Source: an uncultured Clostridia bacterium (GTDB lineage: Bacteria > Bacillota > Clostridia > Oscillospirales > Acutalibacteraceae). From it: a stretch of 64,000 nt of DNA. The stretch spans positions 10,533 to 74,532 of the forward strand of contig CANQUV010000014.1 in assembly GCA_947627135.1 (NCBI GenBank). Reading direction: 5' to 3'. How positions within the stretch are numbered: the first letter of the stretch is position 1; every line of letters starts with the position of its first letter. The notes under the pieces were generated by a model. That model was not told where the DNA came from and searched no databases. It was given only the letters and a program-made list of their open reading frames with translations. This document shows, piece after piece, positions 8,449 through 28,720 of the stretch. Made by a program: the position numbers and the translations under genes.

Positions 8449-8525
8449 CGAGGTGTAACTCAGTTTGGTAGAGTGCTTGGTTTGGGACCAAGATGCCGCA
8501 GGTTCAAGTCCTGTCACCTCGACCA
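8449..8525 (+). tRNA. tRNA-Pro (anticodon UGG)
   Basis: Cloverleaf read by eye. 7-bp acceptor stem CGAGGTG/CACCTCG, anticodon loop TTTGGGA with TGG at 8483-8485, T-loop TTCAAGT, encoded CCA. Confidence 0.9.
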
Positions 8526-9026: not shown

Positions 9027-10097
9027 ATGTCTGATACATCTATATTAAAAAAAAGAGTTTTTTCTTATGATATAATACGAATCATAGCTGTTTTAGCAGT
9101 TATTATGATTCATTCATCGGTAGGTTTCGTTACAAGTAACCCGCAATCCACTAACTTTATTTTCGGTAATATTTTTGACGGCATGTCTAGAATTGGCGTA
9201 CCGTTGTTTGTAATGATTTCCGGAGCACTGATGTTAGATGAAAACAAAACTGTTACTATAAAAATAATGCTTAAGTATGCCTTGAGAATTTTTATACTTC
9301 TATGTATATGGTCGCTGTTGTATGCATTTGTATATCAAATTATAAATCCAATAATTAATAATGCTTCTATTTCAATGGACAAGTTTTGGAACGCATTTGT
9401 TTACGGACATTATCATTTATGGTATCTGTATATGCTGATTGGGCTATACTTAATAACACCTATATTAAAAACATTTGTAAAGAAATCAAATGAAAAAATA
9501 ATTCTTTATTTTATAACTCTTGCTGTAATTATTCAATTCACTATACCTCTATGTAATTTATTGATTAATCAAATTACGGGAACAACTAATTTACTGCAAA
9601 ACTTTTTCAGCAAATTTCAGTTAGGTTTTGTCGGGCAATACACTGCATACTATCTTTTAGGCTGGTATATTACAAACATAAATATAAAAAAGAAACACAG
9701 AAATTTATTGTATGCGTTAGGAGTTGTCGGATTATTGATAACCATATTAGGACCTCAGCTATTAATAAACGATACAAATAAAATATACAACAATTTTTAT
9801 TCGGATACGAGCATAAATGTTATGTGTTACAGCGTAGGAGTTTTTGCATTCTTCTTTTACTCTTTAAGTAATAAAAAATACAAACGAAATAGTTCATTTA
9901 TTATGACACTGTCAAATTTAACATTCGGCGTATATTTAATTCACCCGTATATTTTATATCTATTGGGCAAGTTCATTAATACAGGAAATGCATTGACTCA
10001 AGTACCGTTGAATTGGATAACAGCAACTATAATTTCATTCATTATTGTATTTTTAATGTCAAAAATCCCATTGTTAAAAAAGCTTGTAAGGTTTTAA
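9027..10097 (+). CDS. acyltransferase family 3 (integral membrane O-acyltransferase)
   Basis: 356 aa and polytopic. The N-terminal segment FSYDIIRIIAVLAVIMIHS is typical of Acyl_transf_3. AAAGGAG RBS upstream. Confidence 0.7.
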   Translation: MSDTSILKKRVFSYDIIRIIAVLAVIMIHSSVGFVTSNPQSTNFIFGNIFDGMSRIGVPLFVMISGALMLDENKTVTIKIMLKYALRIFILLCIWSLLYAFVYQIINPIINNASISMDKFWNAFVYGHYHLWYLYMLIGLYLITPILKTFVKKSNEKIILYFITLAVIIQFTIPLCNLLINQITGTTNLLQNFFSKFQLGFVGQYTAYYLLGWYITNINIKKKHRNLLYALGVVGLLITILGPQLLINDTNKIYNNFYSDTSINVMCYSVGVFAFFFYSLSNKKYKRNSSFIMTLSNLTFGVYLIHPYILYLLGKFINTGNALTQVPLNWITATIISFIIVFLMSKIPLLKKLVRF

Positions 10098-10213
10098 AAA
10101 TACAGGTAAATCTTTTATTATTTTAATTTTCAAATTACTTATTTTATAACTTATTATTTTTCTTTATATTAAAATACAAAAACAAAGTCAATTAATTTTA
10201 AAAAGTTACATAT

Positions 10214-10275
10214 TGTGCCGCAATAATACAAATTTTGTCATATTTATTGACAATTTTTTTCACATTATTTATTTT
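10214..10275 (+). promoter_or_regulatory. putative AgrA(LytTR)-dependent promoter of agrB
   Basis: Half-sites GTGCCG (G at 10217) and TTGTCA (G at 10237) lie 20 bp apart. The proximal half-site is 10 bp from -35 TTGACA (10247-10252). A 17-bp spacer leads to a weak -10 TATTTT (10270-10275). Geometry matches the modules at 10905 and 13517. Confidence 0.45.
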
Positions 10276-10297
10276 ATTTATAAAGAAGGCTGGTAAT

Positions 10298-10888
10298 ATG
10301 ATTGCGGAAATTTCAGAAAAGATCTCATCTTTTATTTTAAGCAATTCCGATAACAGCAATAAAGAACTTAAAAGTATTTATAAATACGGTATAGAAATTT
10401 TTATTTCTTCTCTACTTAATATATTTTTAATTTTTATTATTGGCTTTGTTACTGATACTTTAATTCAAAGTCTTTGGTTTTTGATTTGTTTTATTCCTTT
10501 GAGACAATTTACCGGAGGATGGCATGCAAATACTTACTTTAAATGTAATCTAATATTTTGTATATCATATATACTTATAATTCTGTTTTCATTTTTATTT
10601 TCTCATATTGAAAACGCATATCTTATCTTTATACTGCTCTTAACAGGTTTATTGCCTGTAATAATTTTAAGTCCTGTTGAAAATAAAAATAAAAAAATTA
10701 AAAATAGAAAAAAATTAAAATTTTTAAGTACTGTATTGTATATCATATTTTCTATAACAAGTCTTTGCTTTTACTTTTTTTATAAGGAGATATCTTTTAT
10801 AATATTATTTACACTGTTGTGTGTATCAATTGCAGTAATTGCAGGGCGTTTATCAGAAGTTCTACAAACCTTTAATCGACAAAGTTAG
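10298..10888 (+). CDS. agrB: AgrB-family accessory gene regulator B (AgrD-processing membrane peptidase)
   Basis: Polytopic membrane protein with LRQFTGGWHANTYFKC. His and Cys are 7 residues apart, as in the S. aureus AgrB catalytic pair (HAPSSFWC). GAAGG RBS precedes the ATG at 10298. The ORF-track start at 10235 would overlap the promoter. Confidence 0.8.
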   Translation: MIAEISEKISSFILSNSDNSNKELKSIYKYGIEIFISSLLNIFLIFIIGFVTDTLIQSLWFLICFIPLRQFTGGWHANTYFKCNLIFCISYILIILFSFLFSHIENAYLIFILLLTGLLPVIILSPVENKNKKIKNRKKLKFLSTVLYIIFSITSLCFYFFYKEISFIILFTLLCVSIAVIAGRLSEVLQTFNRQS

Positions 10889-10904
10889 ATAAAATAATAC
10901 AAAC

Positions 10905-10970
10905 TTTGCCTAAATTATACATATTATGCCTAAATCATTGACTTTATAATTAAATAATTTATTCTAAAAT
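10905..10970 (+). promoter_or_regulatory. putative AgrA(LytTR)-dependent promoter driving an intergenic transcript
   Basis: Direct repeats TTGCCTAAAT and ATGCCTAAAT with G at 10908 and 10928 (20-bp period). -35 TTGACT at 10938-10943, 10 bp from the proximal repeat. -10 TAAAAT at 10965-10970 with a 21-bp spacer. About 27 of 41 positions match the agrD promoter module, including the blocks TTGCC, TACATATT, TGCC and ATTGA. Confidence 0.55.
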
Positions 10971-10977
10971 TACCAAA

Positions 10978-11228
10978 GTAATGTAGCCTATTAAATTAAT
11001 TTTTAATTTACTATCTTTTGCACAACAGTCCTGCTGCATTACTTGGGTCAATTTCGGACCATGGTGTTTGTAATTCTTTGTAAAGGATGCGGCTTTTGCA
11101 TGAAGTGTTGTCGGCTCCTTCTTCAATTTCGACAACTCAGTTTTATAAACGAGGGCGTATAATTCTTTTTTCTGTTGTGCTTTTACGATAGACTAAAGAC
11201 CTTCCCGCATCGGAAGGTCTTTGTGTTA
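10978..11228 (+). ncRNA. candidate quorum-sensing-controlled small RNA (ends approximate)
   Basis: Bounded by the promoter module above and the intrinsic terminator at 11198-11228. Closing helix GCACAACAG (11020-11028) / CTGTTGTGC (11172-11180). Internal hairpin GTTGTCG/CGACAAC (11107-11136) has a 16-nt CU-rich loop GCUCCUUCUUCAAUUU. No ORF has a usable RBS. Confidence 0.4.
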
Positions 11229-11229
11229 A
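11198..11229 (+). terminator. intrinsic terminator of the candidate RNA / agrB read-through
   Basis: Hairpin AGACCTTCC-CGCAT-CGGAAGGTCT followed by TTTGTGTT on the plus strand. Confidence 0.7.
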
Positions 11230-11261
11230 GCTTTTTATATTTTCATTTTCCTTTTTACCCT

Positions 11262-11300
11262 AAACAGACTAATTGATCGATCGGTCAATTAGTCTGTTTT
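11262..11300. terminator. bidirectional terminator (terminates agrC on the minus strand)
   Basis: Near-perfect 15-bp stem AAACAGACTAATTGA / TCAATTAGTCTGTTT, flanked by T-runs on both strands. Confidence 0.75.
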
Positions 11301-11333
11301 ACTTTTAATGCCGGTTTGTAATAATATAATTTT

Positions 11334-12662
11334 TTAATCTGTTCTTAGAATTACAGTTACGCAAAACATATTGTCGGGACTTTCGTATATATCAAGTTTT
11401 CCGTTGTATTTATTTACAATATGATTTACAGAAGTGAAACCAAATCCATGCTTTGATGAATCTTTCTTAGAAGTTAAAAGCTTAGAATTATTTTTCAACA
11501 CGGATTTTTCAATTGAATTTTTAATGGATAGAGTCATCATATCGTTATCAGCGCTTATTTGTATTTTTATGTATCTTTCATTTGATGTGATCTTTTCGCA
11601 GGCTTCAATGGCATTATCAAGTAAATTGCCCAGAAGATTACATAAATCAATATCATCAATATTAATAATATACTTGCTTGACTGCACAAACACATTTATA
11701 CCCACACTTTTTGCATAAATTATTTTAGAATTAATAATTGCATTTACAGTCTCATTATCTGTGCAGACTGTTCCTCCTAAAAACACCTGTTGGTGAAGAA
11801 GCGTTGAAATATATTTTTGAGTTTCTTCAATTTTTCCTTGTTTAAGCTGCGCTTCTATTACAAACAAATTATGCTTTAAATCGTGGCGAATGGTTTTAAT
11901 TTCTTTTTCCTCAAGTTTTATATTCTCCACATAATGAGCCTGATACTCATTTTGAAGTTTCAAGAGTTTATTTTCTGATTCAATATAGTTCGTGCGACTG
12001 AGCCTGACAATCATATAAAATGAAACAATATTCAGTATAACCAGACATAACAGTCCAAATAAGGCAAGAATTTTACCCATTTCATTGAGTTTGTTCTCAA
12101 TATTTATTAAGTCAATGATTGTAAAAACTGCAGTTGAAATTAAAAATGTTGTTATAATTGAAATCCATTCACTGAAACTCATACTGAACTTTTTTTCTTT
12201 TTCAAAAACTTTCTGAATTACAAGTAATAAATAATAGAGTAAAAACTTTGTAATTACAACAGTAAAGGTACGATAAATACTTTGCTGATAAATTAAATTT
12301 TCGAGCCCCTCTCCGCAAATTGTGGAAACTGCTGTTGCAACAACACTATTTACAATAATTATACTTACAATGGGAATAAGCGACACAATAAACTTTATGG
12401 GAATACTTCCGTTTAAGTAAAGCAAACAGAAAATGAATACAATAGTTGAATATAGCACTGCCCCAAAGCTTTCAAATTCAGTTATGCTGTTGACTGCTGT
12501 TACAAGTAAAGAAAACAACAACCAAAAAATCCAAAAGCCCATTATAAATTTTTTGCCGTTTACTTTTTTGCCCAAAAATTCTTTGGCAAAATTTAAAATA
12601 ATAAGGGTTTCAAAACAAGTTGCCAATATTTCAAATACATACCAACAAATTTTTTCCATCAT
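11334..12662 (-). CDS. agrC: AgrC-like sensor histidine kinase (HPK10 family, GHKL ATPase)
   Basis: About 6 N-terminal TM helices. H-box IRHDLKHNL, N-box NLLDNAIEA, G-box HGFGFTSV. Its start overlaps the stop of the LytTR regulator by 4 nt. Confidence 0.8.
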   Translation of the reverse strand: MMEKICWYVFEILATCFETLIILNFAKEFLGKKVNGKKFIMGFWIFWLLFSLLVTAVNSITEFESFGAVLYSTIVFIFCLLYLNGSIPIKFIVSLIPIVSIIIVNSVVATAVSTICGEGLENLIYQQSIYRTFTVVITKFLLYYLLLVIQKVFEKEKKFSMSFSEWISIITTFLISTAVFTIIDLINIENKLNEMGKILALFGLLCLVILNIVSFYMIVRLSRTNYIESENKLLKLQNEYQAHYVENIKLEEKEIKTIRHDLKHNLFVIEAQLKQGKIEETQKYISTLLHQQVFLGGTVCTDNETVNAIINSKIIYAKSVGINVFVQSSKYIINIDDIDLCNLLGNLLDNAIEACEKITSNERYIKIQISADNDMMTLSIKNSIEKSVLKNNSKLLTSKKDSSKHGFGFTSVNHIVNKYNGKLDIYESPDNMFCVTVILRTD

Positions 12663-13381
12663 ATAGTTTTCCTCAAATAATCCGTAAATTTTTCATCCGC
12701 AAAATTTTTATGATTTCGACTTATTTCAAGCCGTTCACCGTTTTTTAAAATTAAAATTTCTCTTCGTTTGTCAACAAACTGAACATATTTTAAGTTTACC
12801 AAATATCTCTGATGAATTTTGATAAAATCATATTCTTCAAATTCTTTGTCTTTGTCTTTCATAACATCTCTTACTTTTATAACTTTATCATTTGATAAAT
12901 GATATTCTATGTAATGTCTGTCACTTTTAAGATATAGTATATCCATATAAGAAACAACTGTATTAATACCTTCCGCATTTAAAATAAGTGACTTGTTTTG
13001 CTTGTTGAACAAAAGTAGTTTTTCAATAACTTTTCTAATATTATTTTTTATATTATTTGATCCGTCTTTTCTAATAAAATAAAAGGGTTGGTAGTTAAAG
13101 CTGTCATATACAAGTTCATCTTTTGATGTTATAAAAATAATTATTGCATCCCTGGAATCCTTTCTTATTTTTTCCGCAATTTTAAATCCATCTATATCCG
13201 GCATTGAAATATCAAGAAAAAATACATCGTAATGTTCCTTGCCAAGATCTTTTAAAAGTTTTATGCTGTCATTAAATGGAGTAATTTTTGCTGAAGATTT
13301 ATGTTTTTTAAATTCATCACAAACAGTCAGATATATGAAATCCAATGACGACGGATTATCGTCACAAATAGCTATTTTCAT
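12659..13381 (-). CDS. agrA: AgrA-like response regulator (REC + LytTR DNA-binding domain)
   Basis: N-terminus MKIAICDDN, phospho-acceptor region FLDISMPDIDG, and a C-terminal LytTR-type domain (...HQRYLVNLKYV...). AAGGAGGG RBS. Confidence 0.85.
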   Translation of the reverse strand: MKIAICDDNPSSLDFIYLTVCDEFKKHKSSAKITPFNDSIKLLKDLGKEHYDVFFLDISMPDIDGFKIAEKIRKDSRDAIIIFITSKDELVYDSFNYQPFYFIRKDGSNNIKNNIRKVIEKLLLFNKQNKSLILNAEGINTVVSYMDILYLKSDRHYIEYHLSNDKVIKVRDVMKDKDKEFEEYDFIKIHQRYLVNLKYVQFVDKRREILILKNGERLEISRNHKNFADEKFTDYLRKTI

Positions 13382-13435
13382 AATTACCCTCCTTATCTAC
13401 TCATCATTAAAATACAATTATATGTAACTAAAATA

Positions 13436-13494
13436 ATTATATCATTATTTGTCATTTTTTCAATAATAGGCGCAAAACAACCGTAAATGTACAA
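13436..13494 (-). promoter_or_regulatory. putative promoter of agrA-agrC with weaker LytTR-like half-sites
   Basis: On the minus strand: -35 TTGAAA (13458-13463), 16-bp spacer, -10 TATAAT (13436-13441). Half-site TTGCGC lies 10 bp upstream of the -35, and TTGTAC lies 19 bp further upstream. Confidence 0.35.
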
Positions 13495-13516
13495 TTTATT
13501 ATGTTTATAAAACATT

Positions 13517-13579
13517 TCTTGCCATAATATTACATATTTTGCCAGTTTAATTGAACATTTATACAAAGCATAGTAAAAT
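13517..13579 (+). promoter_or_regulatory. putative AgrA(LytTR)-dependent promoter of agrD
   Basis: Repeats CTTGCCATAA and TTTGCCAGTT with G at 13521 and 13541 (20-bp period). -35 TTGAAC at 13551-13556, 10 bp from the proximal repeat. 17-bp spacer, then -10 TAAAAT at 13574-13579. Confidence 0.55.
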
Positions 13580-13632
13580 ATTTTCACAAATAAATGATAG
13601 TTTTCTATTATAAAACGAAGGAGGTAAAAATT

Positions 13633-13773
13633 ATGAAGTTTAAAAGAACACTTGCAAATGCAGTTGAGTCTGTATCTGTAAAAATGGCTAAAGCAGCTCA
13701 AGGCAGTGCATCAATCTTTGGTTTTCATCAGCCTAAAGAGCCTGATATGTCTAAACTTACAGAAAAGAAGTAA
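13633..13773 (+). CDS. agrD: AgrD-like autoinducing peptide precursor (46 aa, below the ORF-track cutoff)
   Basis: AGGAGG lies 8 nt upstream of the ATG. Product: MKFKRTLANAVESVSVKMAKAAQGSASIFGFHQPKEPDMSKLTEKK. It has an amphipathic N-terminus, a five-residue SIFGF segment, then the charged HQPKEP tail typical of clostridial AgrD C-termini. An intrinsic terminator follows. Confidence 0.7.
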   Translation: MKFKRTLANAVESVSVKMAKAAQGSASIFGFHQPKEPDMSKLTEKK

Positions 13774-13785
13774 TTAAATTTTAAA

Positions 13786-13822
13786 AAGAGAGTAACAGCA
13801 TTTAAGGCTGTTACTCTTTTTT
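13786..13822. terminator. bidirectional terminator (agrD on plus, Zn-ribbon membrane gene on minus)
   Basis: Stem AGAGAGTAACAGC / GCTGTTACTCT followed by a T-run. Abuts the stop of the minus-strand gene at 13825. Confidence 0.75.
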
Positions 13823-13824
13823 TA

Positions 13825-14235
13825 TTAAAATAAAATATTCTTTTTAAATTGGTGCCTGCATTTTGGGCAGCGAACTGTATGAACTCCCTTTTTTCTGGGA
13901 ACTCTCAACTGTGCCTTGCAATTGGGACATTTAAAGTAACATAAGCTCTTAATATCTCTGATCTTTTTTATTTGAAATGAAAAAAATGAATTAACCTTTT
14001 TATAAACAGGTAAAAACTTGTTATTTTCATACAATCTTTTTGTAATATTTTTAGATAACGATCTGTAAAGGCATAATCCTAAAAAAAACAGACCTATTAT
14101 ACTTAAAATCCAATTTCTGAAAAAAAGGTTTATTACAAAAATTATTCCCCACAGAATCAGTAAAAAAGTATTGAGCTGGTCGTTACCATAACGACCCTGC
14201 ATAAAATAATACAGTTTTTGTATTAACATTCTCAT
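13825..14235 (-). CDS. small membrane protein with C-terminal zinc ribbon
   Basis: Two hydrophobic helices, then CPNC...(17 aa)...CPKC. Confidence 0.5.
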   Translation of the reverse strand: MRMLIQKLYYFMQGRYGNDQLNTFLLILWGIIFVINLFFRNWILSIIGLFFLGLCLYRSLSKNITKRLYENNKFLPVYKKVNSFFSFQIKKIRDIKSLCYFKCPNCKAQLRVPRKKGVHTVRCPKCRHQFKKNILF

Positions 14236-28430: not shown

Positions 28431-28720
28431 AATATTTTAAACCTGTGATCAAGAGTAGTAAGAATCATATTCTGCTTACAGAGAACCGTGTTTGGTGGAA
28501 ATCGGCAGCAGAATTTTTCCCAATGGACTTGTGAGGGCAGAGCAAAATCATATTAATATCATTTGTAATGTGCAAAAAGCAGTATGAGAGTAGTATCTGA
28601 CGGTATCCTCCGTTACAGGAAATGTTTTTGCAAAGTGGATGTTTACATCAATTTGGGTGGCACCGCAGAAGTTTTTTAGCTTTTGTCCCTTGTTATATAG
28701 GGATAAAAGCTTTTATTTTT
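28431..28720 (+). promoter_or_regulatory. T-box riboswitch leader, specifier UGG (Trp)
   Basis: AGAGA element in stem I. Specifier-loop UGG at 28496-28498, followed by A. Conserved T-box sequence AATTTGGGTGGCACCGC at 28650-28666. Terminator AGCTTTTGTCCC / GGGATAAAAGCT plus a T-run at 28678-28720. Confidence 0.8.

Follow-up and report, generated by a model that had tools for sequence, protein, structure and literature searches.

An agr-type quorum-sensing locus with agrB and agrD apart and a candidate regulatory RNA between them in an uncultured Clostridia bacterium

How does a peptide quorum-sensing circuit work when the genes for its processing enzyme and for the substrate of that enzyme do not lie side by side? 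The agr systems serve as the Gram-positive model of peptide quorum sensing. Outside the pathogens, agr wiring is mostly inferred from the presence of the genes. We analyzed a 64-kb stretch of DNA from an uncultured Clostridia bacterium of the Ruminococcus/Oscillospiraceae type, a gut or rumen lineage (contig CANQUV010000014.1, positions 10,533 to 74,532, hereafter the window), in which agrB (+) is followed by a candidate RNA gene (+), agrC (−), agrA (−) and agrD (+). The canonical layout, with agrD directly beside agrB in one operon, is not found at this locus. Instead, 2745 bp separate the stop codon of agrB from the start codon of agrD, and the RNA gene and the opposite-strand agrC-agrA pair lie in between. 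We consider it likely that the locus is a complete agr-type cyclic-peptide quorum-sensing system with four transcription units in place of a single operon.

An earlier note on this DNA had read all four agr functions from the sequence, in the order given above with agrB and agrD about 2.7 kb apart, and the profile searches and open reading frames (ORFs) bear this out. The gene agrB (10298-10888, +) encodes a membrane cysteine peptidase/cyclase of 196 amino acids with about 5-6 hydrophobic segments and the His/Cys pair in the motif GGWHANTYFKC. These residues, H76 and C83, are 7 residues apart and unchanged in an alignment of five homologues. In the Pfam profile search AgrB scored 131.6 bits against PF04647 (cutoff 23), while a sequence search of the PDB gave no match for it. 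We did not take the TTG at 10235 as the start of agrB, because it lies within the promoter and the homologues begin at ATG. The product of agrC (11334-12662, −) is an HPK10-type sensor kinase of 442 amino acids. Its first ~210 residues are hydrophobic and form a polytopic N-terminal sensor of 6-7 segments, followed by the H-box IRHDLKHNL and a GHKL domain that matches HATPase_c_5 with 88.9 bits. The gene agrA (12659-13381, −) encodes a REC-LytTR response regulator of 240 amino acids, which matches Response_reg (PF00072, 48.7 bits) and LytTR (PF04397, 51.9 bits) as well as the AgrA/LytR/BtsR models, and aligns over its full length with ComE (PDB 4cbv). As had been noted, the regulator gene precedes the kinase gene, and the agrA stop and the agrC start overlap by 4 nt (ATGA). 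AgrB scored 43 against the staphylococcal equivalog NF002210 (cutoff 282) and AgrC gave a weak full-length alignment with the staphylococcal AgrC model NF046015. As the staphylococcal equivalog models stay far under their cutoffs, the proteins are members of the families and not orthologues of those of S. aureus. With the precursor described next, all four functions pass their profile tests and the locus is a complete agr-type system.

The gene agrD (13633-13773, +) has the ribosome-binding site GGAGG 8 nt upstream and encodes a precursor of 46 amino acids, MKFKRTLANAVESVSVKMAKAAQGSA-SIFGF-HQPKEPDMSKLTEKK. The precursor scored 26.7 bits against TIGR04223, "AgrD family cyclic lactone autoinducer peptide" (cutoff 19), it is present in every relative with enough sequence, and its homologue P0056 from an Oscillospiraceae metagenome-assembled genome (MAG) is named "cyclic lactone autoinducer peptide" by NCBI. 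AgrD contains no Cys, and Ser27 is the only candidate nucleophile for the core SIFGF|HQPKEP. The precursors align position by position, with SIFGF|HQPKEP in the window, SLWGL|KQAKEP in the related locus L012 and SCWGY|YQVKEP in L014, and the follower motif (H/Y/K)QxKEP is common to the window and to those relatives whose agrD overlaps agrB. In C. thermocellum, AgrD yields a lactone pentapeptide from Ser25 to Phe29, with Tyr30 next to it and a conserved Pro35 at +6 (PMC5322536). From the precursor alignment and the C. thermocellum AgrD, a cut after Phe31 and a five-residue lactone ring S-I-F-G-F closed on Ser27 are predicted. Cys is the usual nucleophile in clostridia according to Molloy et al. 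(PMC8251862), and the Ser form of the window AgrD is the less common lactone class. Residues 25-38 (SASIFGFHQPKEPD) are 100% identical in five lineages (the window and the L007, L013, L018 and P0054 homologues), while over the same five lineages the lowest identities are 42% for the AgrD leader, 48% for AgrB and 57% for the AgrC sensor domain. The invariant SIFGF across five species-level lineages suggests a common cross-species "language" and not diverging pherotypes.

What could drive the separated genes becomes apparent from their upstream regions. A 46-bp module, consisting of two xACAxxTxTTGCC boxes with a period of 20 bp and then TTGAC, precedes agrB, the RNA and agrD, in each case on the plus strand. 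The 13-mer TACATATTNTGCC occurs exactly three times in the 64 kb, at 10207, 10918 and 13531, each time with a degenerate partner box 20 bp away (10227, 10898 and 13511, respectively), and TTGACA, TTGACT or TTGAAC sits exactly 40 bp after the first box of each pair. Simulation with the dinucleotide content of the window gave 0.06 expected paired boxes against the 3 observed. We scanned both strands of the window with a 46-bp weight matrix that had been trained on the sites of the other lineages only, with the window left out. The RNA promoter P_RNA came out on top (45.6 bits), followed by PagrB (39.8) and PagrD (35.3), and the next unrelated site scored 4.5. PagrB (10207-10275, +) consists of box 1 at 10207-10219 (TACATATTGTGCC), box 2 at 10227-10239 (TACAAATTTTGTC), the −35 element TTGACA at 10247-10252 and the −10-like TATTTT at 10270-10275. 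In P_RNA (10898-10970, +) the boxes lie at 10898-10910 and 10918-10930, the −35 element TTGACT at 10938-10943 and a conserved TATTCTAAAAT at 10960-10970. PagrD (13511-13579, +) has its boxes at 13511-13523 and 13531-13543, the −35 element TTGAAC at 13551-13556 and the −10 element TAAAAT at 13574-13579.

The module aligns at 13 promoters over five lineages, and a 14th site, PagrD of L013, has a box spacing of 21 bp. It is present at every agrB, RNA and agrD promoter that is on a contig in all lineages: before agrB also in L007, L013, L018 and L023, before agrD also in L007, L013 and L018, and before the RNA in 5/5 lineages, with the −35 and −10 elements at fixed spacing. Paired direct repeats beside the −35 element are the promoter architecture of LytTR regulators such as AgrA, VirR and RgaR (PMC10602386). 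All the above supports the claim of the earlier note that agrB and agrD are transcribed separately, both from LytTR-type promoters of their own with direct repeats, and AgrA would be the protein that binds the paired boxes.

The receptor pair appears to be driven differently. Its promoter PagrAC (13436-13463, −) consists of TTGAAA, a 16-nt spacer and a TG-extended TATAAT, a near-consensus sigma-A promoter with 11/12 matches plus the TG, and it is kept in four lineages as TTGAAAAA-N-TGnTATAAT. No LytTR module was found on the same strand at this promoter, and the distance from PagrAC to the oppositely oriented agrD boxes differs by lineage, from ~10 to ~50 nt. As the promoter is of the sigma-A type, lacks same-strand boxes and lies at a variable distance from those of agrD, expression of agrA-agrC looks constitutive. 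The earlier note had placed four arms under one regulator; this holds for agrB, agrD and the RNA, but not for agrA-agrC, whose conserved near-consensus housekeeping promoter leaves three regulated arms. In the public assemblies a 64-amino-acid ORF has been autocalled at L001 13096-13290 (−), which corresponds to window ~13393-13590 between agrA and agrD, and this ORF is probably spurious because the region holds PagrAC and the agrD box module.

Is the split layout an accident of one genome? Searches of 5.8 billion proteins with AgrB and with AgrD gave five lineages each, and a scan of GTDB genomes and JGI metagenomes with the AgrB alignment gave one close locus (L013) and four distant ones. 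The split order, with a gap of ~450 bp between agrB and agrC, is found in the window lineage (L001-L003), in L007 (AgrB 69% identical) and in L008-L010/L013 (57-59%). In L018/L019 (48-49%) a gene for a 1010-residue ABC2_membrane_3 protein stands between the RNA and agrC, so that agrB and agrD are 6.2 kb apart, and despite this intervening gene of 3 kb every unit and every promoter module is kept. The order thus recurs in four lineages with AgrB 48-100% identical, and a 1.2-kb contig, L023 (AgrB 68%), carries the agrB-RNA half only (PagrB, agrB, P_RNA and RNA). The chromosomal neighbours of the split loci partly differ between lineages. Downstream, the zinc-ribbon protein, FprA, LDH and DHHW are common to the window, L007 and L018, which argues for vertical inheritance at one chromosomal site. 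The ABC2_membrane_3 protein is YhgE/Pip-like, and its gene lies on the minus strand (L018 2360-5392) between the RNA terminator and agrC.

Relatives at ~41% AgrB identity are colinear, with agrA-agrC-agrB-agrD in L012 and agrB-agrD-agrA-agrC in L014, and in both agrD directly follows or overlaps agrB. As the split is found in one small Oscillospiraceae/Ruminococcus clade and the ~41% relatives are colinear, it is a derived and stable feature of that clade. In L012 (7870-7960) the terminator behind agrC directly adjoins a box module (34.5 bits) before agrB, the sole module there, and the TGCC-box module therefore predates the split layout. Origin by a single inversion was rejected, since neither agrACBD nor agrBDAC as the ancestor can be brought into these orientations by one such step. 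Promoter duplication is needed. Besides the module before agrB, L014 carries another (13.2 bits; minus strand, ~4224 to 3625) that points away from agrB and lies upstream of a 128-amino-acid signal-peptide protein, a possible direct regulon member there.

The spacer between agrB and agrC holds the candidate regulatory RNA (10972-11227, +), which would be ~255 nt long from its predicted 5′ end. It closes with an intrinsic terminator (11195-11227, +), in which an invariant AAAGACCUUCC...GGAAGGUCUUU is followed by a U-rich tract. A long-range helix of 9 bp pairs 11020-11028 with 11172-11180 (GCACAACAG/CUGUUGUGC, +), and a hairpin at 11107-11136 (+) carries the C-rich loop GCUCCUUCUUCAAUUU at 11114-11129. 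The G+C content of the RNA is 37.5%, against 24-29% in the adjoining genes. Its fold is more stable than those of shuffled sequences (z = −3.1); as the reverse strand behaves similarly (z = −3.3), the strand was assigned from the promoter and the U-tract. Searched with a profile of this region, the five lineages gave exactly one copy per locus, and neither the colinear relatives nor the rest of the window gave any. No terminator was found between the agrB stop codon (10886-10888) and box 1 of P_RNA, which begins 10 nt on. The RNA is therefore expected in two forms, from its own promoter and, probably, as the 3′ untranslated region (UTR) of the agrB mRNA. A second hairpin of 17 bp (11262-11299), between the RNA and the agrC stop codon, probably backs up the termination of the RNA/agrB transcript and/or terminates agrA-agrC; L007 and L008 carry a hairpin of different sequence at the equivalent position.

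Comparison of the five lineages gives suggestive covariation. In the long helix, compensatory changes are seen twice, with U-A in L007 and A-U in L018 in place of G-C. The stem of the hairpin is different in each lineage and occurs as GUUGUCG/CGACAAC, GUUGCCG/CGGCAGU, GUGU-UCC/GGA-ACAC and GCAUU-CCGG/CCGG-AAUGC, while the loop keeps (G)CUCCUYC. In the MAFFT alignment 92% of the cells pair and four pairs show double changes, against 40-51% pairing when the partners are slid, a control of the partner-slide/shuffle kind that is not a probability. The hairpin stems shift register between lineages and the column-based MAFFT counts are undercounts, so that we relied on the folds of the single sequences. 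The conserved C-rich loop suggests that the RNA might pair with the Shine-Dalgarno regions of target mRNAs; in duplex prediction any strong Shine-Dalgarno sequence pairs with it. Within 11020-11232 the C-rich hairpin lies between two conserved blocks rich in G, GGUGUUUGUAA and GGGYGUA, and pairing of GGGYGUA with CUCC might serve as a switch that masks the anti-Shine-Dalgarno sequence.

The alternative that survives best is that the 450-bp spacer between agrB and agrC is a mere 3′ UTR and terminator region of agrB, and that the boxes in it are a duplicated promoter relic or a sink for AgrA. The region would be transcribed as the agrB 3′ UTR anyway, as no terminator separates agrB from the boxes, and the RNA has no Rfam family, no specific target and thin covariation. 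Rfam gave no family at the gathering threshold for the RNA in a search of the whole window, where the sole matches, all away from the RNA, were a T-box and two tRNAs, and even at E-values up to 5 over 10100-13900 there was no match to RNAIII (RF00503) or of the VR-RNA type. Against it, the P_RNA module is the top-scoring one of the window, intact in every lineage and with its core elements at fixed spacing. Blocks of the body behind it are conserved, its hairpin covaries around a conserved loop, and its G+C content is above that of the flanking genes. The spacer is ~450 bp wherever agrC follows directly, and the RNA stays beside agrB when agrC is 3 kb off. We hold this alternative to be unlikely. 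That the RNA is an AgrA-dependent effector, an analogue of RNAIII in a Clostridia agr locus with a dual origin (agrB 3′ UTR and own promoter) and an anti-Shine-Dalgarno loop, is put forward tentatively, as a serious possibility that falls a little short of being probable. It may act in the manner of RNAIII but is not a member of RF00503.

A second alternative concerns the pairing of the enzyme with its substrate: agrB and agrD might not be cognate, with the 46-residue peptide processed by another AgrB or this AgrB serving another precursor, and their closeness would then be coincidental. The 64-75 kb of genome that are visible leave room for such partners, and an AgrB of C. autoethanogenum can serve a distant AgrD (PMC8748961). 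Against this, the four lineages with sufficient sequence all have the four genes in one order, one and the same module is found at all three promoters, and relatives with an agrD that overlaps agrB have the follower (H/Y/K)QxKEP as well. Nor was any further AgrB- or AgrD-like sequence found in the 64-kb window, where a canonical agrBD pair would have spoken against the assignment. We regard a non-cognate pair as very improbable. Least probable of all is that the RNA region acts by encoding a small peptide of the delta-toxin/PSM or bacteriocin kind, a reading we rejected because no ORF is conserved across the lineages compared: RNAIII itself does encode delta-toxin (PMC12312760) and the window shares the short ORF MKCCRLLLQFRQ... 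with its closest relative L023, but in L007 this ORF lacks a start codon, L013 and L018 carry nothing that corresponds to it, the indels between lineages are not multiples of three, and the supposed ribosome-binding site is 12 nt from the ATG.

Based on the evidence above, we propose the following circuit. The receptor pair AgrA-AgrC would be made from the strong housekeeping-type promoter, constitutively as far as the promoter tells. Basal expression of agrD and agrB would supply the 46-amino-acid AgrD, which AgrB would cut between F31 and H32 with removal of the follower HQPKEPDMSKLTEKK. AgrB would then cyclise the new C-terminus onto Ser27 to give the five-residue lactone S-I-F-G-F. The peptide would activate AgrC, which would lead to phosphorylation of AgrA, and phosphorylated AgrA would act on the two 13-bp boxes (20-bp period, abutting the TTGAC of the −35 element) at the three promoters to raise agrB, agrD and the ~255-nt RNA. 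This would put enzyme and substrate each under a positive feedback of its own and add an RNA as output. The RNA, made as agrB 3′ UTR and from its own promoter, would pair with Shine-Dalgarno regions through its C-rich loop, as the loops of RNAIII do.

Several points weigh against this proposal. What is shown are the identities of the genes, their layout and its conservation, the promoter modules, and the conserved RNA with its terminator. The ends of the transcripts, the binding of and dependence on AgrA, the cleavage site and ring and the function of the RNA are deduced from the DNA sequence, and the peptide of this uncultured organism is predicted from the genes. A second agrBD pair may lie in the genome beyond the 64-kb window. 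The covariation comes from five lineages and 4 compensatory pairs, the long helix and the terminator being almost invariant, and the sliding control has the limit given above. RNAalifold also gives a structure with internal pairing between the C-rich block and the conserved GGGYGU block, and this pairing would mask the loop. The duplexes predicted between the loop and translation start regions are non-specific, and no target ranks consistently high across the lineages.

With S. aureus agr the window locus shares the four protein functions, an AgrA-type REC-LytTR regulator, paired direct repeats by the −35 element and, as predicted from its sequence, positive feedback on signal production and a locus-encoded RNA output with a C-rich loop (PMC12312760, PMC8748961). 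Unlike the staphylococcal arrangement of P2-agrBDCA and divergent P3-RNAIII, agrB and agrD are here separate units 2.7 kb apart, agrA precedes agrC behind a housekeeping-type promoter of its own, so that autoinduction of the receptor is unlikely. Ser and not Cys is the predicted nucleophile of the ring, and the box period is 20 bp. Whereas RNAIII is divergent and 514 nt long, the window RNA is co-directional with agrB, directly 3′ of it and ~255 nt long, with no conserved ORF and no RF00503 match.

Further parallels come from other clostridia. The order of agr genes varies: agrBD and agrCA can form separate operons and C. difficile has agrACDB (PMC12312760, PMC3754575). C. autoethanogenum has agrD1-agrC1-agrB1 plus an agrD2-agrC2 that depends on the distant AgrB1 (PMC8748961). 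There, too, agrB and agrD are non-adjacent and AgrB acts on a separately encoded AgrD, but the loci have no agrA, no per-gene LytTR promoters are reported and no RNA gene is described, while the window locus is complete and compact (PMC8748961). In C. (Acetivibrio) thermocellum, agrD (Clo1313_2818) likewise lies outside an agr operon and shows the same Ser-x-x-x-Phe | aromatic...Pro(+6) pattern (PMC5322536). Its detected product is a Ser-lactone cyclic pentapeptide that ends in Phe and has no exocyclic tail (PMC5322536). No cognate AgrB, AgrC or AgrA has been identified in that organism, whereas the window has all four within 3.6 kb (PMC5322536). Given these published exceptions, adjacency of agrB and agrD is typical of the family but not defining (PMC8748961, PMC5322536). 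The split that had struck the earlier note is conserved in relatives and yet less unprecedented than implied there.

As for the RNA, LytTR quorum-sensing regulators that drive small RNAs (sRNAs) are known from RNAIII, VR-RNA/VirT/VirU and SpoZ (PMC10602386). In the RgaR and VirR regulons agrBD and an sRNA (SpoZ; VR-RNA, VirT, VirU) stand on separate promoters under one regulator (PMC10602386). The window locus resembles C. difficile RgaS-RgaR and C. perfringens VirS-VirR in its LytTR-type repeats before signal genes and a candidate sRNA (PMC10602386). In those systems, however, the components are scattered on the chromosome and agrB-agrD form one operon, and their RNAs are unrelated in sequence to the window RNA. 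A 2025 primer describes the clostridial agr systems as without an associated RNAIII equivalent (PMC12312760), and according to the C. autoethanogenum study no such equivalent is on record (PMC8748961). The colinear loci L012 and L014 share with the window the regulator-before-kinase order, the TGCC-box module before agrB and the AgrD ring and follower pattern; they differ in that agrD follows or overlaps agrB and no RNA homologue is detectable.

Uncoupled agrB/agrD genes and LytTR-driven sRNAs are thus known already, and the split locus is a variation on a published kind. We found no description of the combination, in a complete and compact locus, of an agrB, an agrD and a locus RNA that each have their own module, nor, in that combination, of a receptor pair on a housekeeping-type promoter and an RNA that is a promoter-bearing 3′ extension of agrB. 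The most interesting aspects are the uncatalogued RNA and the invariant Ser-lactone signal. The locus shows a clean and conserved rewiring, which would let the cell set the ratio of peptide to enzyme independently and would avoid autoinduction of the receptor, both of which alter how the circuit switches. It also gives a candidate RNA effector for agr in Clostridia, a group generally described as lacking one; if true, agr would have its first RNA effector linked to the locus beyond the staphylococci. The invariant signal, set against the diversification of pherotypes in staphylococci, bears on cross-species signalling among the gut or rumen relatives of Ruminococcus. Three promoters and a predicted SIFGF lactone make the locus directly testable.

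The surroundings of the locus add some minor observations. It had been described as lying just downstream of tRNA-Pro in a very AT-rich stretch. The tRNA gene (8449-8525) is indeed upstream, but 1.77 kb off and separated from agrB by an acyltransferase_3 gene (9027-10097), and its closeness is without visible significance. The G+C content of the locus is 27.5% against 33% for the whole window, although the locus is not the AT extreme of the window. A mobile island at tRNA-Pro was considered and rejected, as there is no integrase, the acyltransferase gene stands between, and the downstream neighbours are common to L007 and L018.

On the other side, agrD ends with a terminator (13789-13826, +) of an 11-bp stem and then TTTTTTATT. 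Directly after agrD, a gene on the minus strand (13825-14235) encodes a membrane protein of 136 amino acids with a C-terminal CxxC...CxxC zinc ribbon; L018 (12072-12482) and L001-L002 have it close to the locus too. The neighbouring FprA is >90% identical to a protein from a "Ruminococcus sp." MAG. Far from the locus, at 28436-28693 (+), there is a T-box leader that scored 99 bits (gathering score 93).

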